From contig JAZQIZ010000031.1 of assembly GCA_045541395.1 (NCBI GenBank), positions 3,519-67,518 of the forward strand: 64,000 nt of DNA, written 5' to 3'. Of the stretch, positions 20,411-54,037 are shown piece after piece (the stretch's first letter is position 1; each line of letters begins with the position of its first letter). The translations under genes were made by a program, and so were the position numbers. The stretch is from Eubacteriales bacterium. GTDB taxonomy: Bacteria; Bacillota; Clostridia; Oscillospirales; UMGS1783. The notes beneath the pieces were generated by a model. It searched no databases. It had not been told where the DNA came from and saw only the letters and a program-made list of their open reading frames with translations.

Positions 20411-22552
20411 TCAAACAGGCTTATAAGTAAATATTTTGGCGGTGTATACTTCTTCTATATTTACAGTGAAACCATTTGTCATAAGCTCAAGCCCTGTAAA
20501 TACAGCGGGCTCATTGGTATCAATATCGGTTACAATATAAGAAGCATTAGCATCAAGCCCCGAAAGGTAATAGGTTTGGGTGGTTTCGGTGCTTTCCCCT
20601 CTCTTAAACACCTGAATTATGCCTGTGGAGGTTTTATAATCGTTAAACTGCCAAGCCATCCAGGTATTTTCCGTATCATTAAAGGGAGTAAGGGGATAAT
20701 AGTCCTGAGTAAGAAATGGGGCATAAGCCAGACTTTCATCTATAAACTCTTTTTTATAAGCAACCTGACCTTCATGATTCTGCTCCATGGGAGTGAAGGA
20801 ATAGCCGTTAGAGGTAAAAAGCTCGGAACGGGAAGCGTATTTATCATTAACGTAAATGCCGTGGCCGGAATAGGGCATATAGAAATTAATACCCCAGCTC
20901 TGACACTGAGCAATTATAGGGCCTTTATTGTTATCGTCACGCCAAAGAGCAACCGAGCGCTTGGTGGATTCCAGATCAAGACGCTTGCCGCCGGAGGCAC
21001 AGTTATCTATATAGGTACCGGTATGCTCAAGAATTGCATCGAAATACCTTAGATAGTTGATTATATAGCGGTTTTCAACGTAACCCTTACGGCCCTCTTC
21101 TTCTATAGATTGCCAATATGATTTAAGGGATGCGCCGCCGTTTAAATTACAGTCCTGTCTGTAAATATCAACGCCGTTTTCGGTAATATGATTGCAGATA
21201 TAATCTATGAGCCAATCGGTAGCTTCATCGTTGGACAAATTAAAGCAATGCCAGCCCGAAACGTTCTCGATTATATAATCGGTACCCTTGAATCTGTTAT
21301 AAAAATCTGAGTTGGTAACAAGTCTTTCAGGCTCATACCACAGAATAAGACCCAGACCGTTTTCATGGAGCTTATCTGTAATAGGCTTCAAAGTGCCGTT
21401 AAAACGCTCCTGTGAGGGGGTCCAGCTGCCTGTGTCGGTCCAGGATGTAGAATCGTTGGCCATATCATACCAGCCTGCATCCATTTGCCAATAGGTTATC
21501 CCAAGATCCTTCTGTGCCCACCATTCAATGGCCTTAAGCTGATTTTCGGTGGTGGCCTTTACCGTAAGGGCAGTATAGCCTGCGGTATTGCCGAATATGT
21601 TTGTTTTAATAGGTTCACCGTTGGGCTGAGGCATAGCAATATTATAAACCCATCTTCTCCAAAGGTTTTGGGAGCGCATAAAGTCCTTTTCCCAGAAAAG
21701 GAGAGTGATCAACGGGGAGCGTATCTGCTCACCGGGCTTAAGGTAGGTATTAAGGCTTTCCTGTTTTGCTACTACGCTTACGCCCTGGGCGGTATTTTCA
21801 AAATTAGTTGCCCATTGTCCGGACCAGCCGTTTGAAATAAACACGCCTTCCTTACCCCAAGCAGCCTTTTCATTTTCCCACTGCAGGTTTGCATAGGGAG
21901 CCCAGGTAACAGAGGATTTACCGCCTGAACCTGAAAGCATTTTTTTAGCGCCTTCCTCTAATATCCTTGCTTCCGCCTTAAAAGACTCGGTGGATTCATG
22001 GCTTCCTTCGAAGGTTGTAAGGGTGATATCGCCCTGATTATCCTGTGCGAAGGTGTCTGTAAGGCCGTAAAATTCGGATATTTGTTCAGAATTTTCATTA
22101 CCCGTATTGGAGAGCCACACGGTCCATTCTATAATTGCATACTCTTTATAGAGAGTAGCATATACGGTAACTGTAATGGGGCAACCTTTCTTTACATAGG
22201 TTAAGGTCCAATCGGTTCGAACCTCGGTATCGGCGGTTTCTTCTGCGGTAAGATCCCAATTCTTTATATCCTCAGCAAAGGAGATTTCGCCTATTTTAAA
22301 ATCAAAGGCACTGTCTTTGGTTCCGGCCGCTTTCAGAATATGATTTTTTAAATACTTTTCCGCTTTCCTCAGTTCATTTTTGGTTGTGTTTGTATGAGCA
22401 GAATCCAAAGCATATTCTCTATCCATAAAGAAATACTGAATATCTTCACCCTTATTTGCACTAAGAGCATAAGCGGTTTCTTCCGGTGCGCAGGCACCAA
22501 GGATTCCGACACAAACTGAAACCAATAGGATCATGGCTATAATTTTTTTCAC
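20411..22552 (-). CDS. lipoprotein, GH36-like (clan GH-D) glycoside hydrolase, paralog 1
   Basis: GTG start. Lipobox ILGAC. Catalytic-domain motifs WQMDAGWYD, LILWYEPERL, DIYRQDCNLN, DNCASGGKRLD and LWRDD line up with GH36 DDGW / WVEPE / KWDMN / CSGGGGR / SDNTD. Confidence 0.7.
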   Translation of the reverse strand: MKKIIAMILLVSVCVGILGACAPEETAYALSANKGEDIQYFFMDREYALDSAHTNTTKNELRKAEKYLKNHILKAAGTKDSAFDFKIGEISFAEDIKNWDLTAEETADTEVRTDWTLTYVKKGCPITVTVYATLYKEYAIIEWTVWLSNTGNENSEQISEFYGLTDTFAQDNQGDITLTTFEGSHESTESFKAEARILEEGAKKMLSGSGGKSSVTWAPYANLQWENEKAAWGKEGVFISNGWSGQWATNFENTAQGVSVVAKQESLNTYLKPGEQIRSPLITLLFWEKDFMRSQNLWRRWVYNIAMPQPNGEPIKTNIFGNTAGYTALTVKATTENQLKAIEWWAQKDLGITYWQMDAGWYDMANDSTSWTDTGSWTPSQERFNGTLKPITDKLHENGLGLILWYEPERLVTNSDFYNRFKGTDYIIENVSGWHCFNLSNDEATDWLIDYICNHITENGVDIYRQDCNLNGGASLKSYWQSIEEEGRKGYVENRYIINYLRYFDAILEHTGTYIDNCASGGKRLDLESTKRSVALWRDDNNKGPIIAQCQSWGINFYMPYSGHGIYVNDKYASRSELFTSNGYSFTPMEQNHEGQVAYKKEFIDESLAYAPFLTQDYYPLTPFNDTENTWMAWQFNDYKTSTGIIQVFKRGESTETTQTYYLSGLDANASYIVTDIDTNEPAVFTGLELMTNGFTVNIEEVYTAKIFTYKPV

Positions 22553-22609
22553 TTTTCTTGCCTCCGATTTTGTTTTTTATAATGTACCATATTTTTTTGC
22601 AAAAGGCAA

Positions 22610-22642
22610 TAAAAAAAGTTGCAAAGCATTTGCTTTGCAACT
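22610..22642 (-). terminator. rho-independent terminator between GH paralogs 2 and 1
   Basis: 11-bp stem agttgcaaagc (22617-22627) with gctttgcaact (22632-22642). A T7 run follows on the minus strand. Confidence 0.6.
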
Positions 22643-22654
22643 AATTTTTTAATA

Positions 22655-24820
22655 TTACTTTTCAACAGGAGCGTAATGGAACATCTTGCACTCACGCTGG
22701 CCGATAGCATCGCCGTGAGGCATATTAATTGTAATGCCTTCGGTCATAAGCTTCTTACCGGAAACTTCATAGGTTTCTTCGGTATCAACGTCGGTAATAA
22801 CGTACTTAGTGCCTGCATCAAGGCCGCTAAGCTTGTAGGTATGGGTACCTACGCCGTCACCTGCGCGCTTGAAGGCCTGAACGATACCGGAGGATGTTTC
22901 GGGATCGTTATACTGCCAAGCCATCCAGCAATATTCGGTATTATCCCAAGCAGTAAGAGGATAGTAGTCACCTACTAAGTAGGGAGAATATTCTTTATGC
23001 TCAGCAAGAACCATCTGGCAGCCTGCAATATCTTCATCGTTAAGATGGTCGATCTGGTTGTAAGCAAAGCCTGTATACTGCATCATATTAGAACGGTATA
23101 CGTAAGGATCGTCACTTAAGGTACCCTGACCGGAGTAAGGCATAAAGAAGTTGATGCCCCAGCTCTGGCACTGAGTAAGAGAAGGCTCATAGCACTTATC
23201 GTCTCTCCAAAGAGCAACTGCGCGCTTGGTGCATTCCAGGTCAAGACGCTTGCCGCCGGAAGCGCAGTTATCAATAAAGGTACCTGTGTGTTCGTTAATA
23301 GCATCGAAGAACTTAAGGAAGTTTACAATGTAACGGTTTTCATTATAACCTGTTCTGCCTTCTTCCTCATATTCTTTCCAATATGTCATAAGGGAAGCGC
23401 CGTCGTTCAGGTTGCAGTCCTGTCTGTAAATGTCAACGCCGTTATCATCAATGCACTTGCAGATGTAATCCGTAAGCCACTGAGCAGCTTCGTCATTAGA
23501 GAAGTTGAAGCAGTGCCAGCCTGCAATGTGCTCCATATAATAATCCTTGCCCTTGAATTCATTGAAGATATAAGAGTTAGTAACAAGTCTTTCAGGCTCG
23601 AACCAAAGAATAAGACCCATACCTTCTTCATGGAGCTTATCGGAAATAGGCTTTAAGGTGCCGTTGAAACGCCTGATAGAAGGAGTCCAGGAACCGGTAT
23701 CAACCCAGTCAGTAGAGTCGTTAGCCATATCGTACCAGCCTGCGTCCATTTGCCAGTTATCTACGTTAAGGTCATAGCCTAACCAACGGTCAATAGCTTC
23801 TAACTGATTTTCGGTATCAGCCCAAACAGTAAGGCCGGTTTCAGCTGCGGTGTTACCGTGGGTCATAGTGGGGATAGGTTCACCGTTAGGCTGAGGCATA
23901 GCTACGTTATATACCCATCTTCTCCAAAGGTTCTGAGAACGCATAAAGTCCTTTTCCCAGAAGAGCATAGTAATAAGGGGTGAACGGATAGCATCGCCGG
24001 GGTTAAGATATGTGTTCAATCTTTCCTGGTTTGCAGTAATAGCAATACCCTCACCGGTATTTTCAACTCTGGTTTCCCACTGGCCGGTCCAGCCGTTGGA
24101 AATGAATACGCCTTCCTTGCCCCATTCGGCATCTTCATTAGCCCACTGAAGGTTAAGGTAAGGAGCCCATGTAACAGAGGATTTACCGCCGGTACCGTTA
24201 GTACCCTTAAATTTGCCCTCTTCAATTACCATAGAGTTGGGCTTGAAGGATGCATAGTCTTCATGGCTGCCTTCGTAGAAGGTGCATCTAAACTCGCCAT
24301 CTGCAAATTCTTCGCCGAAGGTATCATTAAGAGCTAAAAGCTCGGTGATCTGGCCGGTCTTTTCATTGCTGATATTGGTAATCCATACGGTCCACTCAAT
24401 AACAGCATATTCTTTATAAAGGGTTGCATAAACGTCAACCTGAAGGGGGTTGCCGTCTTTGGTGTAGGTTAAAGTCCAATCAGTCTTAACTTCATCATCG
24501 CCTGTCTGCTCGGTCTTGAGAGTCCAGTTAGCAATATCCTCAGCAAAGGACTTGCCGTCCAGTAAGAAATCAAAAGCAGAGTCGCCGTTTTTTGCAGCTT
24601 CAAGGATCTTGGTGGTAAGATACTCTTCAGCCTTATCAAGCTCAGCCTGAATGGTGTCAACGTTGGAAGCGTCAAGAGCATATTCTCTGTCCATAAAGAA
24701 ATAAGCATCTTTATCTTCGATCTCATTGGATATCTTTATAAGCTTACCTTCCTGAGAGCAGCCTGCAAAAAGGCTTAAGCACATAATAAGAAGTAAAAGC
24801 GCAGATACTATTCTTTTCAT
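22655..24820 (-). CDS. lipoprotein, GH36-like glycoside hydrolase, paralog 2
   Basis: Lipobox LFAGC. Same motif set (WQMDAGWYD, YRQDCNLN, DNCASGGKRLD, LWRDD). Collinear with paralogs 1 and 3 along the full length. Confidence 0.7.
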   Translation of the reverse strand: MKRIVSALLLLIMCLSLFAGCSQEGKLIKISNEIEDKDAYFFMDREYALDASNVDTIQAELDKAEEYLTTKILEAAKNGDSAFDFLLDGKSFAEDIANWTLKTEQTGDDEVKTDWTLTYTKDGNPLQVDVYATLYKEYAVIEWTVWITNISNEKTGQITELLALNDTFGEEFADGEFRCTFYEGSHEDYASFKPNSMVIEEGKFKGTNGTGGKSSVTWAPYLNLQWANEDAEWGKEGVFISNGWTGQWETRVENTGEGIAITANQERLNTYLNPGDAIRSPLITMLFWEKDFMRSQNLWRRWVYNVAMPQPNGEPIPTMTHGNTAAETGLTVWADTENQLEAIDRWLGYDLNVDNWQMDAGWYDMANDSTDWVDTGSWTPSIRRFNGTLKPISDKLHEEGMGLILWFEPERLVTNSYIFNEFKGKDYYMEHIAGWHCFNFSNDEAAQWLTDYICKCIDDNGVDIYRQDCNLNDGASLMTYWKEYEEEGRTGYNENRYIVNFLKFFDAINEHTGTFIDNCASGGKRLDLECTKRAVALWRDDKCYEPSLTQCQSWGINFFMPYSGQGTLSDDPYVYRSNMMQYTGFAYNQIDHLNDEDIAGCQMVLAEHKEYSPYLVGDYYPLTAWDNTEYCWMAWQYNDPETSSGIVQAFKRAGDGVGTHTYKLSGLDAGTKYVITDVDTEETYEVSGKKLMTEGITINMPHGDAIGQRECKMFHYAPVEK

Positions 24821-24917
24821 TTAGTTACCTCCTATAAATTTAGATTGTATTTTCTAAGCTCGCAGAAGGCTTAAAGCCTTCTGCGGCTTTTATAGATAAA
24901 ACTCTAAGAGGAAATAA

Positions 24918-27083
24918 TTAAGCAACGGGAGCGTAGTGGAAGATCTTTGCGCCGAATTCGTCCTGAATGTTGATCTGAACACCGTCCTGCATAAGCTGCT
25001 GGCCGGTAAGCTCAACAAATTCGCCGGTATCAATATCTTCAACGTGGTAGGTAGTCTTAGCATCAAGACCGTTCAGGTAGAATATTGCGCTGTCCTGATC
25101 GGATTCCATACGCTTGAACATCTGAACAATACCTGTAGAGTCGGAAGCATCGTTATACTGCCAACCCATCCAGGCAGTCTCTTCCTGAGAGAAGGGAGTT
25201 AAGGGATAATAATCCTGAGTGAGATAATGAGCGTAGGTCTTATGCTCCTCAATAACCTGCTTGTGTAAATCAATATTAGCATCATTGATAACAGTCAGTT
25301 TCCAGGGGAAGCCTGTGTAGGTCATCATATTGGAACGGAAGGTATAGGCCATAGTACCGCTCATCTGATCAAGAGAGCCCTGACCGGAGTAAGGCATAAA
25401 GAAGTTGATGCCCCAGCTCTGGCACTGAGTGAGAGTTGCTTCATAGCACTTATCGTCTCTCCAGAGAGCAACTGCGCGCTTGGTGGATTCAAGGTCAAGA
25501 CGCTTACCGCCGGAAGCGCAGTTATCAATAAAGGTGCCTGTATGTTCAACGATAGCGTCGAAATATCTGAGATAGTTGATTATGTAACGGTTTTCAACAT
25601 AACCTCTTCTGCCGTCCTCATCTAATTCCTGCCAGAAGGAGGAGAGAGAAGAGCCGTCGTTAAGGTTGCAGTCCTGTCTGTAAACGTCAACACCGTTTCT
25701 ATCGATGTTATCGCACATATAATCAATAAGCCAATCGGTTGCTTCGTCGCTGGAAAGGTTGAAGCAATGCCAGCCTGTAATAGACTGAATTATAAAATCG
25801 GTATCCTTGAACTGCTTGTGCCAATCGGAATAGGTTACAAGTCTTTCAGGTTCGTACCAAAGAATAAAGTCGATATCGTGTTTATCAAGCTCGTCAGCTA
25901 TAGGTTTAAGAGTGCCGTTGAAACGCTTGTCGGAAGGCTCCCAGGAACCTGTATCCTGCCAAGCGGTGGAGCCGTTGGCCATATCATACCAGCCGGCGTC
26001 CATCTGCCATGCATCGATATCGAAGCCCAGTTCAACCCACTGCTTAATAAAGTCGATCTGGTTTTCGGTGGTTGCCTTTACGGTAAGAGCAGTATCCTGA
26101 GCGGTGTTACCGTGGATCATAGTGGGGATAGGCTCGCCGTCAGGCTGAGGCATAGCTACGTTGTAAACCCATCTTCTCCAAAGGTTCTGAGAACGCATTA
26201 AGTCCTTTTCCCAGAAAAGAAGAGTCATAAGAGGAGAACGGATAGCTTCGCCGGGGTTAAGGTAGGTATCCAGTCTTTCCTGCTTAGCGGTTACTTCAAC
26301 GCCGCCGCCGACATTCTGAACCTTGGTGGACCACTGACCGGACCAGCCGTTGGAAATAAATACGCCTTCCTTGCCCCAGTCGGCATTTTCGTTTGCCCAC
26401 TGAATGTTAACATAAGGAGACCAGGCAACGGAGGATTTACCGCCGGTACCGCCAAGTAATCTGGATTTACCTAAATCAAGAGTCTTGGTTTCAGCTAAGA
26501 AGGAGGTATAATCTTCATGACCGCCTTCGAAGGTGGTTACACGGTATTCTCCGGAAGCTTCTTCACCGAATATATCATAAAGGGCGTTGAATGCATGGAT
26601 CTGACCGGACTTTTCGCTGCCGGTGTTGGAGAGCCATACGGTCCATTCAATAATTGCGAATTCTTTGTAAAGGGTTGCATATACAGTAACTGTAATGGGG
26701 CAACCTTCCTTAACGTAGGTTAAGGTCCAATCGGTTTTGGTTTCGTCATCACCGGTCTGTTCGGTGGTGAGAGTCCAATTTGCAATATCTTCAGAGAAGG
26801 TGACATCGTCGATCATAAAATCGAAAGCAGTTTCACCGTTTTTAGCTGCTTCAAGAATATACTTTGTAAGATATTCTTCAGCCTTCTTAAGTTCTTTTTC
26901 GGTAGTGTCAACACTGTCGGCGTCAACCGCGTATTCTCTGTCCATAAAGAAATAAGCGTCTTTATCTTCAAGAACGTAGTTAAGCTTAATATCGCCGCCC
27001 TTAGCGCTACCTGCGGAGGAACAGCCTGCTATAAGGCTGAGAGCCATTATAAGAACCAGTATAATGCTTACTGTCTTTTTCAT
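24918..27083 (-). CDS. lipoprotein, GH36-like glycoside hydrolase, paralog 3
   Basis: Lipobox LIAGC and the same motif set. Its ATG overlaps the stop of the upstream CBM gene (ATGA at 27080-27083). Confidence 0.7.
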   Translation of the reverse strand: MKKTVSIILVLIMALSLIAGCSSAGSAKGGDIKLNYVLEDKDAYFFMDREYAVDADSVDTTEKELKKAEEYLTKYILEAAKNGETAFDFMIDDVTFSEDIANWTLTTEQTGDDETKTDWTLTYVKEGCPITVTVYATLYKEFAIIEWTVWLSNTGSEKSGQIHAFNALYDIFGEEASGEYRVTTFEGGHEDYTSFLAETKTLDLGKSRLLGGTGGKSSVAWSPYVNIQWANENADWGKEGVFISNGWSGQWSTKVQNVGGGVEVTAKQERLDTYLNPGEAIRSPLMTLLFWEKDLMRSQNLWRRWVYNVAMPQPDGEPIPTMIHGNTAQDTALTVKATTENQIDFIKQWVELGFDIDAWQMDAGWYDMANGSTAWQDTGSWEPSDKRFNGTLKPIADELDKHDIDFILWYEPERLVTYSDWHKQFKDTDFIIQSITGWHCFNLSSDEATDWLIDYMCDNIDRNGVDVYRQDCNLNDGSSLSSFWQELDEDGRRGYVENRYIINYLRYFDAIVEHTGTFIDNCASGGKRLDLESTKRAVALWRDDKCYEATLTQCQSWGINFFMPYSGQGSLDQMSGTMAYTFRSNMMTYTGFPWKLTVINDANIDLHKQVIEEHKTYAHYLTQDYYPLTPFSQEETAWMGWQYNDASDSTGIVQMFKRMESDQDSAIFYLNGLDAKTTYHVEDIDTGEFVELTGQQLMQDGVQINIQDEFGAKIFHYAPVA

Positions 27084-28366
27084 TCTGCTTTACCTCCCTT
27101 TTTCTTCTTAAGTATAACAACTACAACGGCTGCAATAATAACAACTGCTGCTGCAATGCCGCCTATAAGCGCCCAGTTTACAGGGGGCTTTTCGCCAATG
27201 GAAACCTCTTCGCCGGAGGGAACAACTGCCTGAATGGAAGGCAGGATCTCTTCGGGCTCTGTGTTTTCTTCTTCTACTTCTGTGGGAGTAGCACCAACTT
27301 CGCGGATCATAATATCATCGGCAAAGGCCTTCTTGCCGGAAGCAAGAGCGTTTGCAACTATTCTGACCTTAATGGGGGTATTAGGCGCAACGAAACGGAA
27401 GGAAACGGTTTCCCATTCTTCGTTAGTGGAGCATTTGCCTGCACCTAATCTGCCTTCGTTAATATCGATAAACAAGTTTCCTTCGTAATCTGCAGGGCGG
27501 AAGAAGGATGCGTCTACCTGATAGGTCTTACCGCTTTCAAGCTGTAAGTATGCTTCCTGACCTTCCTGGCCGGTGTAATACACGCCTGCGTTTTCGAAGT
27601 TCTGGCCGGTACCAGCGCCGGTAGCCTGAATACCGCCGGTGCCGTCAACGCCAACACCGTCCATAGGCATCCAATAACCGCCGTTCCAGTCAACTCTGAA
27701 CCACCACTTGGAAACAGCCGCACTGTTAAAGCTGCCGTTATCAAGGAGGTTATCGCCTAAAAGCTGAGTTTCAAGGTCTGCAGCAGGGTCACTGCCGTTG
27801 CTTTCAGCCTTATGGTTGCCGGAAAGGCTAATAAGGCTAATATCGTCTACGGTGATCGTCTCATCTGCAGCAAGACCGTTTACAACAAGTCTTATTTTAA
27901 GCTTAGAAGCTTCTGCGGGAGCAGTAAAGGTAAAGGAAACGCCTTCCCAACCGCCTGCGCCGCCTGCGTGAGCAGAACCGAGCGCGCCTTCGTTTACGTC
28001 CATATATACGTCAGCTTCAACGCCTTCGTCATAATGAACCATAAAGGAGAGCTTATACTCCTCGTTAGGTAATGCTGCAAAGCCTGCTTCCTGCCCTTCG
28101 GATACTGTATAGAACAGGCCTGCGTTCTGATCTGCAGTTCCTTCGCCAACGCCGGTTACTGTAAGGCCGCCTGTGCCTTCATAACCGCCGGAGGCTGTGT
28201 GCTGCCAGGTGCCGCCGTTCCAGTCGGCTCTCATCCACCAGCCGGTAAGATTACCGCTGTTGAAATCGCCGTTCTGAAGCAGGCCGCCACCATCTGCACT
28301 AACGCCTACTACCACAAGGGACATAAGCATAAGTGCCGAAAGAATTAATGTTAATACCTTCTTCAT
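27080..28366 (-). CDS. secreted, C-terminally membrane-anchored protein with two CBM4_9-like modules
   Basis: Signal peptide. Two repeats begin LLQNGDFNSGNLTGWW.RADWNGG.W and LLDNGSFNSAAVSKWWFRVDWNGGYW. A C-terminal TM helix is followed by a KKKKGGKAE tail. Confidence 0.65.
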   Translation of the reverse strand: MKKVLTLILSALMLMSLVVVGVSADGGGLLQNGDFNSGNLTGWWMRADWNGGTWQHTASGGYEGTGGLTVTGVGEGTADQNAGLFYTVSEGQEAGFAALPNEEYKLSFMVHYDEGVEADVYMDVNEGALGSAHAGGAGGWEGVSFTFTAPAEASKLKIRLVVNGLAADETITVDDISLISLSGNHKAESNGSDPAADLETQLLGDNLLDNGSFNSAAVSKWWFRVDWNGGYWMPMDGVGVDGTGGIQATGAGTGQNFENAGVYYTGQEGQEAYLQLESGKTYQVDASFFRPADYEGNLFIDINEGRLGAGKCSTNEEWETVSFRFVAPNTPIKVRIVANALASGKKAFADDIMIREVGATPTEVEEENTEPEEILPSIQAVVPSGEEVSIGEKPPVNWALIGGIAAAVVIIAAVVVVILKKKKGGKAE

Positions 28367-28550
28367 TTACTTTTTCCTCTTTTTAATAAATTACATTAGG
28401 TTTGCCTTTGACGGCCCTTGCCGTCACGAATAATCAACTGCTTAAAAAAACAGTTGCTATAAGCCTGAGCCCTCAGGCTCATAACAACTATTTTTTCTTC
28501 AACGAGGGGGCTGGGAAATCCCAGCCCCCATTTAAGGTAGAATTATTAAA

Positions 28551-30452
28551 TTACTTAGAAAGAACAGACTTCTTAGCAACAACAACGCCTACTACAGATG
28601 CGAGCATAAGAGCTACAACTGCGAATACGCTCATATTGTCAGCGGTCTTAGGAGCTTCTTCCTTCTTGTCTTCTTCCTTCTTGTCTTCTTCTACTTCTTC
28701 GTCTTCAACGGGTTCGTCTTCAACGGGTTCATCTTCAACGGGTTCGTCTTCAACGGGTTCGTCTTCGGGATCTTCACCGGGTTCTTCGGGATCTTCGGGA
28801 TCCTGGCCGGGTTCTTCGGGATCTTCGGGATCAACGATTTCGTCTTCAGGAACGTCAACGATGATGTCGCCGAAAGAGGTACCCCAAGAGTTCATAGCTT
28901 CGAGAGCGCCGCCTGCACCGAGAACTGCGGGATACTGGGAAGGATCAATGTTCCAATCCCAAGAGAAAGCTTCTTCACCCTTTTCGCCGTTTTCATCAAC
29001 TTCGTAGATAACTACGTTGTCAATATAGAAACGATCAGCGAATACGGTGTCAGCAGTATCAGCGATAGTGTAAATTCTGTAGCAGTAGCCGTTAATAATG
29101 TTGCCATCGCCAGGAGCGAAGTCTTCGTAAGGCTTATCCATGGTGAGGACAGGAGATTCTACGTGTTCCCAGTTGTTAGACTGGAATACATAGGAGCCCT
29201 TAGCGCCGGGAACCATGCCGTCAGAGAAGTCAAACATAATAGTTTCGCCTGCGGTACCCTTAACGTCAAATTCCATGATATACTGCTTGCCAGCTTCGAT
29301 ATTATAGTTATCGTCAGCATCCTTGCCGGTCCACTGATAGATAGCAGCATAGTTGCCGGGTCTATCTTCAGTTCTGTTACCCTGGAGCCAGATGCACTTT
29401 TCAGGAGCTTCTACTTCGGGATCTTCAGGAGGTTCGGGTTCAACGATTTCTTCGCCTAATTCATAGATAGCAATATCCTTGAGCTGGAAGGTTAAAGCGC
29501 CACTTTCACCGCCGATGGAGTATACACGAGCAGAAACGCCGTTGCCATAGTTAGGATCGGTTTCAGGGATATCTTCCCAAGTAATATTGGCAGTCATAGT
29601 TTCGGAAGTTACAGTTTCCCAAACGCCGGTTTCCTGGAAGGTGTAAGAACCGCCCATGCCAACGGAACCGTCTTTAAAGTCAAACATAATGGACTTGCCA
29701 GCTTCGCCCTTAGCCTGGAAGGACATAACATAGTCTTCACCTAAAACAACGTTAAAGTTGCCGTCAGTCTTGCCGGTCCAGAACATCTGAGCGCCGTAAC
29801 CGTCAGTTGCGTCAAGAGTTACACAGCCGAGGCCGGTAGCACCGTCAGCCCAAGAGCCGAAGGGAGCGGATTCGGGAGTGGTAACGTCCCAAGAGAATAC
29901 AGCAGTTTCAGTAGCTTCGTTAATGATAGTAACTTCGTCGAGGTAGAAGGTTAAAGCACCGTCAGTACCGCCGATGGAGTATACACGAGCAGAAACGCCG
30001 TTTACATAGTTGCCATCAGATTCGGGGATATCTTCATAAGTCAGATCAGACTTAAGACCTGTAAAGGTAGCAGTTTCCCAAACGCCGGTTTCTGCGAAGG
30101 TGTAGGAACCGCCCATGCCAACAGAGCCATCCTTGAAGTCCATCATAATGGACTTGCCAGCTTCGCCCTTAACCTTAACGGATACAGTATAGGTTTCGCC
30201 TAAAACAACGTTAAAGTTGCCATCGGGCTTACCGGTCCAGAACATCTGAGCGCCGTAACCATCAGCAGCATCAAGCTTAACGTAGTCAGCAGTAGTGGTT
30301 GCGCCATCGCCCCAAGAACCATAAGGACCAGCTTCAACAGTTTCGCAAGAAAATGCGAAAACCTGAGTCTGTTCACGAGCAGCAGTAACGATGCCGGTGA
30401 AAAGACCTACCAGCATTACTAATGCCAGTATGAACGCGAGATTCTTTTTCAT
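28551..30452 (-). CDS. cell-surface protein with 3 full copies plus a partial copy of a ~145-aa CBM-like module, an acidic stalk and a C-terminal sorting-type signal
   Basis: Start moved to the ATG at 30452 (AAGGAGGA ribosome-binding site). Signal peptide MKKNLAFILALVMLVGLFTGIVTAA. Repeats contain ...GSW.DGAT...FWTGK.DGNFNV.LGE.Y...KGEAGKSIM.DFKDGSVGMGGSYTF. A D/E/P-rich stalk is followed by APKTADN, a TM helix and KKSVLSK. Confidence 0.7.
   Translation of the reverse strand: MKKNLAFILALVMLVGLFTGIVTAAREQTQVFAFSCETVEAGPYGSWGDGATTTADYVKLDAADGYGAQMFWTGKPDGNFNVVLGETYTVSVKVKGEAGKSIMMDFKDGSVGMGGSYTFAETGVWETATFTGLKSDLTYEDIPESDGNYVNGVSARVYSIGGTDGALTFYLDEVTIINEATETAVFSWDVTTPESAPFGSWADGATGLGCVTLDATDGYGAQMFWTGKTDGNFNVVLGEDYVMSFQAKGEAGKSIMFDFKDGSVGMGGSYTFQETGVWETVTSETMTANITWEDIPETDPNYGNGVSARVYSIGGESGALTFQLKDIAIYELGEEIVEPEPPEDPEVEAPEKCIWLQGNRTEDRPGNYAAIYQWTGKDADDNYNIEAGKQYIMEFDVKGTAGETIMFDFSDGMVPGAKGSYVFQSNNWEHVESPVLTMDKPYEDFAPGDGNIINGYCYRIYTIADTADTVFADRFYIDNVVIYEVDENGEKGEEAFSWDWNIDPSQYPAVLGAGGALEAMNSWGTSFGDIIVDVPEDEIVDPEDPEEPGQDPEDPEEPGEDPEDEPVEDEPVEDEPVEDEPVEDEEVEEDKKEEDKKEEAPKTADNMSVFAVVALMLASVVGVVVAKKSVLSK
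28655..28835 (-). repeat. in-frame tandem DNA repeats encoding the acidic stalk
   Basis: 4 x 15 nt (gtcttcaacgggttc, 28701-28760; one copy has a g>a change). 2 x 15 nt (cttccttcttgtctt, 28658-28687). 2 x 26 nt at 28777-28802 and 28807-28832. Confidence 0.85.
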
Positions 30453-30507
30453 AAAAAATTTCCTCCTTAAATAATTAAAATGAATAAAACGTCCATTTTG
30501 TATAAAT

Positions 30508-30536
30508 ATTATACGCAAACGATTGCGGAAAGTCAA
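30508..30536 (-). promoter_or_regulatory. consensus sigma-A promoter with a LacI-type operator in the spacer
   Basis: Minus strand reads TTGACT (30536-30531), a 17-nt spacer and TATAAT (30513-30508). The spacer holds the near-palindrome CGCAATCGTTTGCG (30514-30527). Confidence 0.65.
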
Positions 30537-30796
30537 TATTTTAAGGCTTTTTTAAAGAATTTACCTTTATTTTTGGTGTTTTCACCAAAAAACTATTAGC
30601 AAAACCAGGTTGAAATGTGTGGTATTGCACAAAGGGTTGAAAGTTATCAAATGGTATACCATACTAATACGTAAAGACACCTGATATTTGCGAAAATTTT
30701 GCGAAAATTTTCGTGGTAATTTACGAAATAATTCACCTGCAAAAGCAATATTTATAAATAAAAAAAGACAACTTATGCTCTGCATTGCCAATAAAA

Positions 30797-30826
30797 AAAG
30801 AAGCCAAGCCGGGCTTGACTTCTTTT
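30797..30826. terminator. terminator after the 294-aa surface protein gene
   Basis: Stem aaagaagccaagcc with ggcttgacttcttt (1 mismatch), flanked by an A-run and a T-run. Confidence 0.55.
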
Positions 30827-30842
30827 TTTATTAGTTGGTTAA

Positions 30843-31727
30843 TTACTTGGAAAGAACGGACTTCTTAACAACAACGATAGCAACAGCGGAGATTGCCATA
30901 AGAGCAACTACAACGCCGATAACCATATTGTCGGAAGTAGCGGGGTTCTTGGTAGCGCCGCCGATAACTTCACCCTTTTCGTCAACGATAACGGTGTTGC
31001 CTTCTTCGTCCTTTTCAACCTTACCGATTACATTACCTTCTTTGTCAACAACAACTTCGTTGCCTTCTTCGTCGGTAGTGATTTCGCCTTCGAGCTGTTC
31101 GCCTTCGCCGTCTTCACCTTCGGGAGTTTCGATGATAACGTCTTCAGTGTATTCATAGATAACGATATCGTCTACAGTAACTTCGGAAGCTGCGAGGGGG
31201 TTGCCGTTGGGGTGAAGGTAGATACGTACGGGATAGCCGTTGAGGATGGACTGATCGCCAGGAGCGAGATCTAATTCATGATCAACGGTAACGGTCATAG
31301 GAGCAGACCAAACGTCTTCCCATTCGCCGGTGGTTTCGAAGGTGTAAGCACCGTTCATACCGATGGAGCCATCCTTGAAGTCATACTGAACTTCTTTGCC
31401 TGCTTCACCCTTAGCTTTGAAGTTAAGGATGTAGGTCTTGCCGTATTCAACAGCATAAACGTTTTCTTCAGCGCCTTCTTCTTTGAGGTTACCGGTCCAC
31501 ATATAATATGCAGCATAGCCGGTATCACCAGCATTGTCAGCAGGTCTGATAATAATATTGTTATCATCAGTAGCAGTAGCGCCGTAAGCCCAAGCGCCCC
31601 ATTCAGCGCCGCCGAGGGAGCTGCAGTCCCAAGAGAATACTGCATCGCCGATGCCGGCAGAAACGATACCGGTGCAAAGGCCGATTACCATTACTAAAGC
31701 GAGTACTAATACAAGACTCTTCTTCAT
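30843..31727 (-). CDS. cell-surface protein with one CBM-like module, a stalk and a C-terminal sorting-type signal
   Basis: Start moved to the ATG at 31727 (AGGAGGA ribosome-binding site). Signal peptide MKKSLVLVLALVMVIGLCTGIVSAG. The module is homologous to those of the 28551-30452 gene (KAKGEAGKEVQYDFKDGSIGMNGAYTF). An E/G-rich stalk is followed by NPATSDN, a TM helix and KKSVLSK. Confidence 0.7.
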   Translation of the reverse strand: MKKSLVLVLALVMVIGLCTGIVSAGIGDAVFSWDCSSLGGAEWGAWAYGATATDDNNIIIRPADNAGDTGYAAYYMWTGNLKEEGAEENVYAVEYGKTYILNFKAKGEAGKEVQYDFKDGSIGMNGAYTFETTGEWEDVWSAPMTVTVDHELDLAPGDQSILNGYPVRIYLHPNGNPLAASEVTVDDIVIYEYTEDVIIETPEGEDGEGEQLEGEITTDEEGNEVVVDKEGNVIGKVEKDEEGNTVIVDEKGEVIGGATKNPATSDNMVIGVVVALMAISAVAIVVVKKSVLSK

Positions 31728-31780: not shown

Positions 31781-31809
31781 ATTATACGCAAACGATTGCT
31801 TAATGTCAA
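31781..31809 (-). promoter_or_regulatory. consensus sigma-A promoter with a LacI-type operator in the spacer
   Basis: Minus strand reads TTGACA (31809-31804), a 17-nt spacer and TATAAT (31786-31781). The spacer holds GCAATCGTTTGCG (31787-31799). Confidence 0.65.
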
Positions 31810-31880: not shown

Positions 31881-32942
31881 TCACTTCTTTTTTGATTTAT
31901 ACTGATAGTATCTGTAATTACTTTTAAAGAGCAGCTGAGGGGGCACGACGATATTTTTCTCGGGCATTCTTTTCTCACCCAGCCAGAAATACATTGCCAT
32001 AAAGGCCTTTCTTGCCTGTTTATAAAGGTCCTGATAGATGGTGGCGTGAACAATATTGTTTTCAAGCATATAAGCAAGATCGTCAAACATATCGGTGGCA
32101 ACCACCTTTATTTTATCGGCAAGACCCATTTCCGTTAAAAGGCGGCAGATGGAGGTACTGTTGGCGGTGGTGATATAAATACCGTCAACCTCGCAGGTTT
32201 CAAGCACTTCTTTGGTTTCGAAATAGGCGGTATCGGCTTCGTCCAGGGTATCTACCATATGAGTCACTTTTACGCCGTATTTTTTAGAGTGATAGAAGAA
32301 TGCGCGGGCGGTTTTAAAGTGGATATCCGATTTCATATCGCCTGTAACAAGAAGGATATTTTTTCTCGCACCGTGGATCATAAAAGAAAGCATCTGCGCG
32401 GCGGCCTCGGCGGCGGCTTCGGCATTACCGGTACAGGCAAAAAGATGCCTTGCTCTTTCCAGGTAAGAGGTAAGGCCCGCAACGGGGATACCGTTATCCA
32501 TTGTGGCGGTTATTTTGTCCATAATAAGCTTTTCATCGTTAGCGGACATAACTATACCGTCACAGTTTTCTTCTATAAGCTCATCTATAAGACTGCAGTA
32601 TTTTTCTGCAGAGGAGGAGCCTGCTTTAATAACCTTAAGAGATAATACCACCTTATAGTCAAAAAGCCTGTCATGAGCTTCACGGATACCTCTTATAAGC
32701 TCACGGGAGGTATGCTCGATATCACCTGCCAGGATAACGCCTATTTTTATTGCCTTTTTTGTAAGGCGGGAAGCCATACGGTTGGGGGTATAGCCGTATT
32801 CCTTGGCGGTTTTTAGTATGTATGCGCGCTTTTCTTCGTTCATTTTATAATCTTCCTTAAAAGCGCGGCTTACCTCCGAAGCGGAGATATTCATTATTTT
32901 GGCCAATTTTGTAATGGAAATATTATCGTCCAACTTATTCAC
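31881..32942 (-). CDS. LacI-family transcriptional regulator
   Basis: N-terminal HTH (ISITKLAKIMNISASEVSRAF...AKEYGYTPNRMASRL) and a periplasmic-binding-protein-like sugar sensor domain. First gene of the minus-strand glycan locus. Confidence 0.8.
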   Translation of the reverse strand: MNKLDDNISITKLAKIMNISASEVSRAFKEDYKMNEEKRAYILKTAKEYGYTPNRMASRLTKKAIKIGVILAGDIEHTSRELIRGIREAHDRLFDYKVVLSLKVIKAGSSSAEKYCSLIDELIEENCDGIVMSANDEKLIMDKITATMDNGIPVAGLTSYLERARHLFACTGNAEAAAEAAAQMLSFMIHGARKNILLVTGDMKSDIHFKTARAFFYHSKKYGVKVTHMVDTLDEADTAYFETKEVLETCEVDGIYITTANSTSICRLLTEMGLADKIKVVATDMFDDLAYMLENNIVHATIYQDLYKQARKAFMAMYFWLGEKRMPEKNIVVPPQLLFKSNYRYYQYKSKKK

Positions 32943-35827: not shown

Positions 35828-36061
35828 TTACATAGATTCGTGGATGGTTCTGCTAATAACATCATCCTGCTGCTCTTTTGTTAACTTGTTGAAGTTTACG
35901 GCATAGCCGGAAACGCGGATGGTGAGCTGGGGGTATTTTTCGGGATGAGCCTGAGCATCTAAGAGAGTCTCACGGTCAAAAACGTTTACGTTGAGGTGGA
36001 AGCCGCCATCGGAAACGTAGGCATCCAGCATATTAACAAGGTTATCGGTTCTCTGGGACAT
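35828..36061 (-). CDS. glycyl-radical domain protein (C-terminal piece of pyruvate formate-lyase; GrcA-like)
   Basis: 77 aa. ...[39 protein letters not shown] is the PFL glycine-radical loop and C-terminus. It has its own AAAGGAGA Shine-Dalgarno 6 nt before the ATG. Confidence 0.85.
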
Positions 36062-36078: not shown

Positions 36079-38106
36079 TTAGTCTTCCCTGCCTAAAGAA
36101 GCGGGAGTAATAGAGAAGGTGTTGGATATACCGTCTCTGGAATAATCGTAAGGGATCTTTGCAACAGATTCAAGGGAAGCCAAAGCACCGTTGCAGTCTC
36201 TGCCGTGCATGGGGTTAGCACCGGGAGCCAAGGGTTCGCCTGCCTTACGACCGTCGGGTGTGTTGCCGGTATTTTTACCGTAAACAACGTTAGAGGTTAT
36301 AGTAAGGATAGAGGTGGTGGGGATAGAGTTTCTGTAGGTGTAATGAGAGCGGATCTTTTTCATAAATCTCTTTACAATATCTACAGCGATCTCATCTACT
36401 CTATCGTCATTATTGCCGTATTTAGGATACTCGCCTTCGATGTTATAGTCTACAACGATACCGTCCTCATTACGAACGGGGTAAACGGTTGCATACTTAA
36501 TAGCGGAAAGTGAGTCAGCCGCGCAGGAAAGACCTGCAATACCTGTAGCAAAGAAGCGGCGAACTTCGCTGTCATGGAGGGCCATTTCAATTGCTTCGTA
36601 GCTGTATTTATCATGCATATAATGGATGGTATTGAGGGTATTAACGTAAAGGCCTGCAAGCCATTCCATTATATTATCAAACTTAGCCATAACCTCGTTA
36701 TAATCAAGCTTATCATTGGAAACGATGGCCTGATATTCGGGGGAAACCTGTAAGGGTTTGCCGCTCGGATCCTTAACGATCTCATCCTTACCGCCGTTGA
36801 TAGCGTAAAGGAGAGCCTTTGCAAGGTTTGCTCTTGCGCCGAAGAACTGCATATCCTTACCTATTCTCATACAGCTTACGCAGCAGGCAATGCCGTAATC
36901 GTCACCCATTTCGGGACGCATAAGCTCATCACTTTCATACTGGATAGAGGAGGTTTTAATAGATATTTCTGCGCAGAACTTCTTGAAGGCTGCAGGGAGC
37001 TTCTTGGACCATAAAACCGTAAGGTTGGGCTCGGGAGCGGGGCCTAAGTTTACGAGGGTGTGGAGAGTACGGAAGGAGTTCTTGGTAACAAGAGTTCTGC
37101 CGTCAACACCCATACCGCCGATCGCTTCGGTTACCCAGGTAGGGTCACCGGAGAAGAGGGCGTTATATTCCTTGGTTCTCATAAACTTAACTATTCTCAG
37201 CTTCATAATGAAGTGATCCATAAGTTCCTGAGCTTCCTCTTCGGTGATAACACCGTTTTCAAGGTCTCTCTCAATGTAAATATCAAGGAAGGTGGAGGTT
37301 CTGCCGATAGACATAGCCGCGCCGTTCTGATCCTTTATAGCTCCTAAATAGCCAAAGTAAAGGAACTGAATAGCTTCCTTGGCGTTTTTAGCAGGCTTGG
37401 AGATATCATAACCGTAAGCTGCAGCCATTTCCTTTAAGCCTTTAAGAGCCTTGATCTGCTCGGCAAGCTCTTCACGGTCACGGATCTTATCGGCAAACAT
37501 TTCGCCGCCAAGCTGCAATTTATCTTCTTCCTTTTTCCGAATAAGGTAATCAACACCGTAAAGGGCAACTCTTCTGTAGTCGCCGATGATTCTGCCGCGG
37601 CCGTAGGCATCGGGCAGGCCGGTAAGAATATGAGACTTTCTTGCAAGGCGCATTTCGGGAGTGTATACGTCAAACACGCCGTCATTATGAGTCTTTCTGT
37701 ATTTGGTGAAGATCTCGGTTACCTTAGGGCTGATCTCAAATCCGTACATATTAAGAGCGCCGGTAGACATTTTAATACCGCCGAAGGGCTGCAAAGAACG
37801 CTTAAAGGGAGCGTCTGTCTGAACGCCGACGATTTTTTCAAGGGATTTATCAAGGTAGCCGGGGCCGTGGCTTGTTAGGGTGGATATTATTTCGGTATCC
37901 GCATCAAGCACGCCGCCTGCTTCTCTTTCTTTTTTGGTAAGGTCACAAACCATATCCCAGAGCTTTTTGGTGGCTTCGGTAGCGCCTGCAAGGAAGCTGC
38001 CGTCACCCTCATAAGGAGTATAGTTTTTCTGAATAAAATCTCTTACTTCTACTTCATCATTGCTCCACTTACCGGGAGTGAAGCCTTCCCATTCGTTGTA
38101 CCACAT
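36079..38106 (-). CDS. pflB: pyruvate formate-lyase, large catalytic piece lacking the glycyl-radical domain
   Basis: 675 aa, collinear with PflB from the N-terminus ([14 protein letters not shown]) through the active-site [12 protein letters not shown] to ...[10 protein letters not shown]. It ends in TAA-TAA. Confidence 0.9.
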
Positions 38107-38136: not shown

Positions 38137-38451
38137 TTAACCCTTATGTTCTTCTAATTTTGCATCCAGCCAAAATTCAAAGATCTCTTCAGGCTGATAG
38201 CCTGTTGCTTTTGCGAAGGGCACGCCGTTATCCGTAAGAAGCACTGTAGGCACTCTGTCAACCTCAAAATGCTCCAACAGCTCCATATTTTCGGGGGCCG
38301 CTTCTATATGTTTTAAAACAAAGTCGGTTCTTTTCTTGGCAATGGCGCCTAAGAGGTTCATCATGGAAATGCAGTTTGCACAGCCCTGGCCGCTTACCTC
38401 CACAACGCAGATGCCCGAAAGCTCCTGTTTGTAATTTTCCAAAGTTATCAT
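38137..38451 (-). CDS. thioredoxin-fold protein with CxxC (GCANC)
   Basis: 104 aa. VEVSGQGCANCISM...VDRVPTVLL pattern of the thioredoxin fold. Its ATG overlaps the pflA stop (ATGA). Confidence 0.65.
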   Translation of the reverse strand: MITLENYKQELSGICVVEVSGQGCANCISMMNLLGAIAKKRTDFVLKHIEAAPENMELLEHFEVDRVPTVLLTDNGVPFAKATGYQPEEIFEFWLDAKLEEHKG

Positions 38452-39182
38452 TTTATTATACCCAAAATCTCCTTTGCCCTGTATACTTCTTCCTTGGTTG
38501 GAGTGGGAATACCCTTAAGGGGATATTCCATACCAAGCTTTTCGTATTTCACCTGACCGAGGGTATGATAAGGCAAAAGCTCTATTTTTTCAACGCAGCT
38601 GAGGGACGCCGCAAATTCTGCAATAGAACGCAGATGCTCCTCACTGTCGGTAATTCCGGGGACAAGCACGTGACGAAGCCACATTTTCTTGCCTGCAGAG
38701 TTAAGAAGCCTTGCAAATTCCAGAATATTTTCATTGCCTTCGCCTGTAAGCCACTTATGCTGCACGGGATCCATATGCTTTATATCCAAAAGAAACAGAT
38801 CGGTATTGGCTATAAGCGTTTCATAGTTATGCAGTTCTTCCGGCTTAAAGCCACCGCCTGAGGTATCAAGGCAGGTATGAACCTTATTTTTTTTGAGTAT
38901 CCTGAATAACTCAGCTACTGCTTTTGCCTGCAGAAGGGGTTCCCCTCCCGAAACGGTAACACCGCCGCTTGCAATATAATTTTTATAACGCAGGACCTGC
39001 ACCGAAACCTCTTTGGGAGTAAGCTTTCTTCCCTCTTCCATATTCCAGGTATCGGGATTGTGGCAGTATTTGCATCTTAACGGACAGCCCTTTAAAAATA
39101 CCACAAAACGGATACCGGGCCCGTCCACCGTGCCGAAGGTTTCAAAAGAATGAATTTTAAGTTTTAAAATTTCCTCCGCCAC
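38448..39182 (-). CDS. pflA: pyruvate formate-lyase activating enzyme (radical SAM)
   Basis: FGTVDGPGIRFVVFLKGCPLRCKYCHNPDTW (CxxxCxxC) and GGVTVSGGEPLLQ. Confidence 0.9.
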   Translation of the reverse strand: MAEEILKLKIHSFETFGTVDGPGIRFVVFLKGCPLRCKYCHNPDTWNMEEGRKLTPKEVSVQVLRYKNYIASGGVTVSGGEPLLQAKAVAELFRILKKNKVHTCLDTSGGGFKPEELHNYETLIANTDLFLLDIKHMDPVQHKWLTGEGNENILEFARLLNSAGKKMWLRHVLVPGITDSEEHLRSIAEFAASLSCVEKIELLPYHTLGQVKYEKLGMEYPLKGIPTPTKEEVYRAKEILGIIK

Positions 39183-52052: not shown

Positions 52053-53036
52053 TTATTCTTCGGCAGCAGCACGGGCATAGCCTTCGTTTACGGCAATCTG
52101 TTTGCCCTGCTCGGAGGCTATCCAGTTAAAAAGAATCCTTTCGGGCGAGTTCTTTTCGGCGGTCTTCTTAATTACCACGTAAAAGTTCTGCGAGAGCTCG
52201 TAGGTGCCGTCTTCTATGGCCTGATTAGAGGGCATTACTCCGTTGTAGGAAAGAATTTTGCTGGTCTCTAAAGTCCAGTCCTCCATTTGGGTAAGGTAAT
52301 AATAAACCGTGTAACCAATGGCTTCATCGGTTCCTTTGTAATTGGCTATAGCCTCCAGAAGGCCGCCCATGGAACCAACAATGTAATCATTGCCCATATA
52401 ATAGTGATCTCCAAAATTGAAGAACATATCAAATAAGGTCTGGGAACCGCTGTCATGGTTTCGCATATAAGGCACAATGGCTTCATCGTTACCGCCGAGA
52501 TCTGCCCAGTTTTTAGTTTCCCCACTAAATATGCCTATAACGTCTTCATAGTTTACGTTTTCAACAGGGTTATCCTTGCCGGTAATAAAAACAAGGGCAT
52601 CCTGAGCAATGGGAATGAATTCAAACTCATTGGCATACTCTGTTTTTACCTCCTCGGCAGGCTCGTAAGCTAAAATAATATCGAAGGTGCCGTCTCTTAA
52701 GCGTTCGTAGTTTGAGGTCGTAGAGCCGTCGAAGGTTAAAAGCTTGGTGGCTTCTTCTCTTGTAAGGCCAAGAGCATTTGCGGTAAGGGCCTCACCTAAG
52801 GGCAGCGCCGCCAATGAGCCGCCCATTTTAGGGTAATTATCCATAGTGAACTCAAACTCTTCATCAACTGTTACCGTTACAGGTTCGGGAGGCAAAGAGG
52901 GCTCTTCCGAAGAGGATGGGGCCGTAACGGAGGGCTTGGGTTCGGGGGTCACGGAAGGCGAGGGTTCTTCCTTTTTGCAGGCGCAAATAGAAAATAAAAG
53001 TATAAGGGAAAGTATAAATGCTAAGAATCTTTTCAT
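52053..53036 (-). CDS. lipoprotein, PstS-like (PBP type 2) substrate-binding protein, paralog A
   Basis: Signal peptide and Cys (LFSICAC). GGSLAALPLGEAL, DALVFITGKDNPV, NWADLGG and RNHDSGSQTLF fit the PstS/PBP_like_2 pattern. There is no pstCAB nearby. Confidence 0.6.
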   Translation of the reverse strand: MKRFLAFILSLILLFSICACKKEEPSPSVTPEPKPSVTAPSSSEEPSLPPEPVTVTVDEEFEFTMDNYPKMGGSLAALPLGEALTANALGLTREEATKLLTFDGSTTSNYERLRDGTFDIILAYEPAEEVKTEYANEFEFIPIAQDALVFITGKDNPVENVNYEDVIGIFSGETKNWADLGGNDEAIVPYMRNHDSGSQTLFDMFFNFGDHYYMGNDYIVGSMGGLLEAIANYKGTDEAIGYTVYYYLTQMEDWTLETSKILSYNGVMPSNQAIEDGTYELSQNFYVVIKKTAEKNSPERILFNWIASEQGKQIAVNEGYARAAAEE

Positions 53037-53057
53037 ATTGGTTTCTCCTGTGAGTAA

Positions 53058-54026: not shown

Positions 54027-54037
54027 AAATATCCTCC

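Follow-up and report, generated by a model that had tools for sequence, protein, structure and literature searches.

How is a secreted protein held at the cell surface when its C-terminus has the layout of a sortase signal, with neither the leucine nor the glycine of LPXTG? This question is raised by two adjacent minus-strand genes, pA and pB, in a 64,000-nucleotide stretch of contig JAZQIZ010000031.1 (positions 3,519 to 67,518; hereafter the window) from an uncultured Eubacteriales bacterium of the class Clostridia. The gene for pA (28551–30452, 633 amino acids (aa)) encodes a signal peptide, three copies of a module, a fragment resembling the start of a module, an acidic stalk rich in Pro, Glu and Asp, and a tail consisting of APKTADN, a transmembrane (TM) segment and KKSVLSK, and the gene for pB (30843–31727, 294 aa) encodes a signal peptide, one module resembling a carbohydrate-binding module (CBM), an acidic Gly/Glu/Val-rich stalk and a tail consisting of NPATSDN, a TM segment and KKSVLSK. 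On the comparisons set out below, we regard as about evenly poised the reading that pA and pB are surface glycan-binding proteins whose tails are a variant sortase signal of the NPxTG type, in which P1' (the position after the threonine) is Ala, Ser or Thr and is followed by a conserved Asp-Asn. Both genes start at an ATG (30452 for pA, 31727 for pB) preceded by an AGGAGG ribosome-binding site, and both signal peptides consist of MKK, a hydrophobic stretch and then VTA or VSA; a TTG start of a longer pA open reading frame (ORF) was rejected, its position falling within the pA promoter.

The tail of pA (28554–28655) begins with APKTADN (28635–28655) and that of pB (30846–30947) with NPATSDN (30927–30947), each followed by a 20-aa hydrophobic segment and KKSVLSK; in full they read APKTADN-MSVFAVVALMLASVVGVVVA-KKSVLSK and NPATSDN-MVIGVVVALMAISAVAIVVV-KKSVLSK, and the mean Kyte–Doolittle hydropathy of the hydrophobic segments is about 2.9–3.0. 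The acidic stalks and tripartite tails read exactly as described in the initial annotation, and its view that motif, hydrophobic segment and basic end together have the architecture of a sortase signal was borne out. Among homologues, the motif and basic end are NPATSDN and KKRVLSK in P0008, P0025 and P0026, NPETTDN and KKRSSF in P0006, NPKTGDT and RKKLAK in P0007, and TPNTGGIPNTGDA (IPNTGD type) and RRRKADQ in P0030. The motif residues P, T, D and N and the KK of the basic end are invariant across the four tails of pA, pB, P0008 and P0006, which belong to proteins with unalignable stalks and modules that are ~35–40% identical; Asp at P2' is invariant in all five tails compared, and the P1' residues are all small (G, A, S or T). 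Because P0007, P0030 and P0008 have the same preceding domain and the same junction, ...VGGDPN, before the motif, xPxTG-D and NPATS-DN sit at equivalent positions. At the DNA level, 21 of the 34 tail codons differ between pA and pB (8 synonymously, 13 non-synonymously), and the synonymous changes are located at conserved Pro, Thr and Ser codons, a pattern which indicates that the tail is likely to be under purifying selection and was not recently homogenized by gene conversion.

Three further observations concern the tails and their stalks. The first 11 codons of the pB tail (NPATSDNMVIG; motif at 30927–30947) differ from those of P0026 (metagenomic contig L002, ~7750–7785) by one synonymous change despite passenger domains that are ~30–40% identical, which points to strong constraint on the tail or to its exchange as a cassette between genes or lineages. 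In P0006, encoded on another NCBI contig, the stalk is a tandem duplication in which PETETEVQTPSN occurs twice and the end of the repeat, SNPET, overlaps NPETTDN, as though this stalk had been lengthened by a duplication reaching into the first residues of the sorting motif. Finally, a high-GC ENA scaffold of 7157 bp (L045) encodes a very large surface protein of ~2000 aa, interrupted by scaffold gaps, that ends in a CBM_4_9 domain of the type found in pC (the neighbour downstream of pA), the doubled motif TPNTGG-IPNTGD and a TM segment, resembling the ‘doubled motif LPXTG anchor’ model NF033073.

The conservation of the motif bears directly on the main rival explanation, a serious one that we consider credible though doubtful: the tails would be plain, uncleaved membrane anchors and PxTxDN either a relic of a sortase signal or a juxtamembrane motif (acting in helix capping, stalk–membrane geometry or an intramembrane interaction), leaving pA and pB on the cytoplasmic membrane like pC and the neighbouring lipoproteins related to glycoside hydrolase family 36 (GH36). 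Drift would be expected of a relic, but P, T, D and N have stayed the same beside stalks that cannot be aligned, with synonymous changes at those codons; the restriction of P1' to G, A, S and T is what one would expect of the S1' pocket of a protease, and long acidic, proline-rich stalks are typical of the wall-spanning regions of sortase substrates. A plain anchor would nevertheless suit a neighbourhood in which membrane tethering is the norm (three lipoproteins, and the motif-less TM anchor of pC and its ortholog), and it agrees with the absence of Gly at P1' from all four tails of this clade.

Several results weigh against a sortase signal, and some of them also favour the plain-anchor explanation. 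Against TIGR01167 (cut-off 15.9), the isolated pA tail scored 16.8 bits, whole pA 12.8 bits and the motif-less pC tail 14.7 bits, and pB gave no hit; because a tail without the motif scores so high, the model mostly sees the TM segment and charged end, and it barely separates pA from pC. With whole pA under the cut-off and pB undetected, the evidence from hidden Markov models (HMMs) is weak, and PF00746 likewise remained below threshold (11.3 against a cut-off of 20). The curated NCBIfam model for an ‘NPXTG-anchored protein’, NF033846 Rumino_NPXTG (cut-off 23.5), reached only 10.1 bits with pB and did not match pA, and TIGR03063 srtB_target gave no hit to the window tails. The tail of the homologue P0007 passes both TIGR01167 (20.4 against 15.9) and, alone among the tails, TIGR03063 (19.5 against 18.15), and therefore serves as a positive control; the sorting-signal HMMs cannot decide the nature of the window tails. 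In agreement with the initial annotation, no sortase was found in the 64-kb window, either by a TLxTC-type regular expression in any real ORF or by a Pfam scan for the sortase family across nearly all window ORFs of at least 150 aa. The conserved cytoplasmic end KK[SR]VLSK corresponds to no known requirement of a sortase signal and suggests constraints unrelated to sortase; and because the plain anchor of pC is also well kept between orthologs, conservation alone proves no processing. Every T[AST]DN-tail bearer found belongs to one module family in a narrow lineage, so the portability expected of a signal is unsupported; conservation of the motif, by which the initial annotation would have its reading judged, was seen in the invariant P/T/D/N of P0008 and P0006 and, in the collections searched, in no protein outside this one family. 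For the glycan-capture part of the reading, pA and pB are transcribed apart from the GH36-like genes, and the operator of their promoters (see below) was not found upstream of pC in the window.

Wider searches for the tail agree with this narrow distribution. A degenerate DNA pattern for PxT[AST]DNM, 19 aa and KK gave 15 hits in 185,579 reference genomes, all by chance and with no TM segment or C-terminus (L013, which looked similar, is a spurious 99-aa ORF), and the DNA pattern for NPATSDNM gave 26 hits in JGI metagenomes, again all by chance. A 42-aa tail-only profile found nothing in the protein database, E-values at that database size being too strict for such a length.

The same features can be read as a signal for processing by something other than a sortase, whether a system like that of Firmicu-CTERM, an exosortase-, archaeosortase- or rhombosortase-like enzyme, or a dedicated protease recognizing PxT[AST]DN together with KKSVLSK. 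The tripartite architecture is common to all such systems, the cytoplasmic end is unusually conserved, and pB fits no curated sortase model above its cut-off; we nonetheless find this explanation highly improbable because no NCBIfam C-terminal sorting model matched pA or pB, because NPKTGD or IPNTGD occupies this position in homologues, a sign of sortase ancestry, and because the window contains no candidate processing enzyme. The Firmicu-CTERM type of which the initial annotation was reminded found no backing: TIGR04145 matched none of the six tails at E ≤ 10 and none of the whole proteins at E ≤ 1. The other NCBIfam models of this kind gave nothing useful; PGF-CTERM stopped at 11.9 bits (cut-off 24.5), and GG_III-CTERM was matched by pC alone, weakly, at 19.4 bits (cut-off 22).

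If the tails are sortase signals, pA and pB would be exported via Sec, their signal peptides would be cleaved, and the C-terminal hydrophobic segment and lysine-rich end would first hold them in the membrane. A sortase encoded elsewhere in the genome would then cut after Thr, recognizing [N/A]-P-x-T-[A/S]-D-N as a derivative of the NPxTG(D) signal, and join pA and pB to peptidoglycan; at P1' such an enzyme would have to tolerate a small residue other than glycine (Ala, Ser or Thr), and it would be expected to use the conserved Asp at P2'. One module in pB and three in pA would be displayed on an acidic, proline-rich spacer whose length suffices to span the wall, and together with pC these modules might keep a polymeric glycan close to the three GH36-like hydrolases tethered to the membrane. 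Expression would be sugar-inducible, a LacI-family repressor blocking the sigma-70-type promoters of pA and pB at GCAATCGTTTGC. A broader proposal, which strikes us as rather unlikely, is that in a small, uncultured lineage of Clostridia the specificity of the sortase moved from NPxTG-D to [N/A]PxT-[A/S/T]-DN, giving a distinct subtype of sorting signal with its own, probably class B-like sortase, dedicated to a very rare family of glycan-capture proteins derived from CBM4/9 and acting with extracellular GH36-like lipoproteins on a polymeric substrate.

Whether pA and pB bind glycans depends on the module. In pA, module 1 spans 29904–30371 (residues 28–183), module 2 spans 29445–29909 (residues 182–336) and module 3, more diverged and without the leading VFSWD strand, spans 28986–29423 (residues 344–489), whereas pB has a single module at 31137–31649 (residues 27–197). 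A profile built from the repeats recovered the three full pA modules with HMM E-values of 1e-67 to 1e-79; sequence identity to module 1 is 67% for module 2, 41% for module 3 and 36% for the pB module. The initial annotation had described two adjacent secreted proteins built from a repeated module, three full copies and a partial one in pA and one in pB, which stands, and had put the module length at ~145 aa, which does not: the module measures ~155 aa and the repeat period ~154 aa. Its marker strings FWTGK.DGNFNV, KGEAGKSIM.DFKDGSVGMGGSYTF and VSARVYSIGG are present in pA modules 1 and 2, and the family as a whole is marked by WTGK, KGEAGK..DF.DG and NG..R.Y.

Several lines of comparison support a divergent CBM_4_9-type beta-sandwich, so that the earlier CBM-like call appears to hold at the superfamily level. 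Pfam CBM_4_9 (PF02018) scored 23.1 bits on whole pA, just under its cut-off of 25.9, and matched 4 of 12 module instances of the family individually (best 2.9e-10), most instances falling below the gathering score; profile–profile alignment by hhalign of the module with the CBM_4_9 domain of pC, itself at 39.1 bits in Pfam, gave a probability of 92.9 and an E-value of 3.7e-7. An AlphaFold2 (AF2) model of pA module 1 (pLDDT 83, pTM 0.81) is all-beta, a beta-jelly-roll sandwich, and its best Foldseek matches in the PDB were CBM4, the CBM22-like BiXyn10A CBM1, CBM61, CBM11 and CBM35 (E 1e-5 to 1e-4, TM-scores about 0.45–0.6), of which BiXyn10A CBM1 was also the top PDB hit by sequence profile (E 0.014). 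The same model matched domain III of Cry toxins and receptor-binding domains of binary toxins about as well (TM-scores just ~0.5), so the modules might instead be adhesin, structural or protein-binding beta-sandwiches of jelly-roll fold whose proximity to the GH36-like genes is incidental. That alternative would be in keeping with the separate transcription of pA and pB from the hydrolases and with the occurrence of a module in another context, alongside WG repeats and PBP_like_2 lipoproteins in and around P0004. We judge it quite unlikely in view of the sequence-level links to CBM_4_9, the fusion of the module to CBM_4_9 domains in P0007 and P0008, and the LacI-type operator and adjacent sugar-type regulator, both of which are kept in the syntenic locus on L002.

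Members of the module family are very rare: among 1.84 billion representative proteins, an exhaustive HMM search returned 8 hits at E ≤ 1e-10, about eight clusters, 3 of which are encoded within this window, and 24 in total at E ≤ 0.001; a search of 5.8 billion clusters with pB matched pB alone. The third module gene of the window (P0004, 49793–52042, minus strand), which the initial annotation had passed over, encodes a 750-aa lipoprotein with the lipobox LLSSC; its single module (65% identity to pA module 2) is followed by WG_beta_rep repeats and no C-terminal tail is present, and its neighbours at 52053–55252 are two PBP_like_2 lipoproteins and a 404-aa protein without a Pfam family. Because P0004 is a lipoprotein and pA and pB have C-terminal tails, a single genome presents the module on two kinds of anchor.

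The partial copy in pA may have a different origin from the one its name implies. Behind module 3, a segment of ~40 aa (28848–28976, residues 493–535, EEAFSWDWN...SWG) resembles just the start of a module (AFSWD...SWG), and module 3 itself is without the leading VFSWD strand of modules 1 and 2. The single module of P0008 has the same order, with a VFSWD-like segment trailing. The fragment may therefore complete module 3 as a circularly permuted strand and not be a decayed fourth copy; in an AF2 model of module 3 with the fragment the AFSWD strand was formed, at a mean pLDDT of just 65.9 and with residues 158–187 below 50. The acidic Pro/Glu/Asp stalk that follows the fragment (28656–28847) consists, at the DNA level, of 15- and 30-nucleotide tandem repeats.

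The promoters of the two genes are homologous. The pB promoter (31781–31809) reads TTGACA-17-TATAAT, with 12 of 12 consensus matches, and the pA promoter (30508–30536) reads TTGACT-17-TATAAT, with 11 of 12; the spacer between −35 and −10 contains in both cases the identical imperfect palindrome GCAATCGTTTGC (31788–31799 and 30515–30526, respectively), which we take to fit the operator pattern of the LacI/CcpA type. Terminator-like hairpins with T-runs follow both genes, one of the intrinsic type after pB (30793–30816) and a strong one with a 20-bp stem after pA (28439–28492), so that pA and pB are, to judge from these elements, separate transcription units, each with its own promoter and terminator. 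A LacI-like regulator encoded immediately upstream (31881–32942, minus strand), with a Peripla_BP_4 domain and a weak match to the LacI helix-turn-helix, is a candidate repressor acting at these operators. Separately, a perfect 11-nucleotide tandem repeat, TTTGCGAAAAT, occurs in 2.3 copies at 30687–30711 (on the gene strand ...CGAAAATTTTCGCAAAATTTTCGCAAA...), ~150 nucleotides upstream of the pA promoter and with no counterpart upstream of pB; it may be a second regulator-binding site.

On the minus strand the order is LacI-like regulator, pB, pA, pC, three GH36-like lipoproteins and an Fe-alcohol dehydrogenase, with QueH divergent upstream. Metagenomic contig L002 has the same QueH–regulator order; next come a single gene whose product fuses the module to a pC-type domain and the NPATSDN tail, and after it the pC ortholog. 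Operator-like sites (GCAAACGTTTGC, GCAATCGTTTGC and ACAAACGTTTGC) lie upstream of both its module gene and its pC ortholog (9 matches against ~1 expected). The pC-type CBM_4_9 domain is the fusion partner of the module in P0007 and P0008 also. Because synteny is conserved, the domains are fused and regulation is of the sugar type, these arrangements support a role in carbohydrate utilization and a functional connection of the module with the pC-type CBM.

Downstream of pA, pC (27080–28366, minus strand) is secreted, contains two CBM_4_9 domains and ends in a plain TM anchor, NW...KKKKGGKAE; the motif-less tail of NW, a hydrophobic stretch and KKKKGG[K/E] is conserved in its ortholog (L002, 8199–9521). 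Translation of pC and of the first GH36-like gene may be coupled, since the stop codon of the one overlaps the start of the other. The three paralogous GH36-like genes (20411–27083, minus strand; 24918–27083, 22655–24820 and 20411–22552) are real and a lipobox is present in all three products, as the initial annotation had proposed. They score 49–67 bits with Melibiase and 31–37 bits with Glyco_hydro_36C (cut-off 27 each), in keeping with GH36, align over their full length with the GH36 alpha-galactosidases 2yfn and 2xn0 (E 1e-16), and give partial hits to a beta-L-arabinopyranosidase model. To our knowledge, an extracellular GH36 enzyme is unusual. The link of the modules to these enzymes, for which the initial annotation had thought that pA and pB probably capture the glycan, is drawn from their adjacency, and any cooperation between them is a prediction.

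Elsewhere in the window, whose GC content is ~44%, two more GH36/Melibiase-like paralogs (41453–43606 and 44481–46628, both plus strand) are without signal peptides and probably cytoplasmic, bringing the GH36-like genes in 64 kb to five, three for lipoproteins and two probably cytoplasmic. The pyruvate formate-lyase gene is in two pieces, both on the minus strand: a 675-aa ORF (36079–38106) ends inside the glycine-radical domain, and a 77-aa ORF 17 nucleotides downstream (35828–36061) carries the glycyl-radical motif RVSGY. The enzyme may be naturally divided, with a spare-part subunit, or its gene may be interrupted by a nonsense mutation or a sequencing error; its activating enzyme is encoded at 38448–39182. 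A Pfam scan identified SipL, a marker of spore formers, and an Rfam scan of the window gave no match.

Should a sortase indeed cleave these tails, a Thr-Ala/Ser/Thr-Asp-Asn motif would join the known sortase repertoire, with a possible use in sortase-mediated ligation chemistry, and prediction of the surface proteomes of gut and rumen Clostridia would improve, since predictors that require Gly in the motif would miss such proteins. The locus may also harbour a new glycan-binding specificity and GH36 enzymes put to unusual use outside the cell, with a very rare, divergent CBM4/9 branch standing beside three GH36-like lipoproteins. These findings extend known systems, namely a sorting signal and the CBM4/9 module, and do not overturn current understanding.

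Compared with the CBM4/CBM9/CBM22 superfamily (PF02018), the module shares a beta-sandwich of ~150 aa, weak-to-clear Pfam hits and profile–profile and structural matches, but differs in its own signature, its extreme rarity and its mostly sub-threshold Pfam scores. The locus likewise resembles those of Gram-positive bacteria in which glycan-capture proteins are encoded beside glycoside hydrolases, having tethered CBM proteins, extracellular hydrolases and a sugar-responsive regulator; it differs in that the cluster contains no transporter, the hydrolases are distant GH36-like lipoproteins and cooperation is deduced from position alone. With the LPXTG anchor (TIGR01167/PF00746), the tails have in common the signal peptide, a Pro- and acid-rich wall-spanning stalk, P-x-T, the 20-aa hydrophobic segment and the positive, Lys-rich end KKSVLSK, but APKTA and NPATS have P and T without L and G, whole-protein scores are sub-threshold and pB is undetected.

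The initial annotation had likened the tails to class D signals of the LPxTA/LPxTS kind, such as LPNTA, LPDTA and LPDTS (PMC8225981). The Thr-Ala or Thr-Ser scissile position and the spore-forming host do recall the class D substrates BasH and BasI of Bacillus anthracis (LPNTA) and YfkN and YhcR of B. subtilis (LPDTA, LPDTS), but Asn or Ala replaces the Leu at P4, the conserved Asp-Asn after P1' is no class D feature, and the closest homologues of the window proteins have NPxTG and not LPxTA; with Asn-Pro, an Asp at P2' and homologues ending in NPKTGD or IPNTGD, the tails lie nearer class B, and the class D likeness was not upheld. The NPXTG/class B signals differ from these tails in several ways: P1' in the window clade is Ala, Ser or Thr and an invariant Asn stands behind the P2' Asp, P4 of pA is Ala (APKTA), the window tails fall far under the NF033846 and TIGR03063 cut-offs, the passengers here are CBM-like where those of class B are haem-uptake or pilus proteins, and no sortase is linked in this locus whereas srtB usually lies beside its own substrates. 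There are also likenesses. Class B signals include NPQTN, NPKTG and the Listeria SrtB substrate signals NPKSS and NAKTN (PMC11987632; PMC8225981), so known class B substrates tolerate a non-Gly P1' (Asn, Ser), and Asp at P2' is needed by B. anthracis SrtB (PMC11987632). pB, P0008 and P0006 fit the class B pattern at P4, P3 and P1 (NPATS, NPETT), with Asn-Pro at P4–P3, Thr at P1 and the P2' Asp that B. anthracis SrtB requires; the motif directly precedes a hydrophobic segment of ~20 aa and a basic end, and P0007 passes TIGR03063. By these comparisons, the tail motif of pA and pB appears closer to the NPXTG/class B signals than to those of class D.

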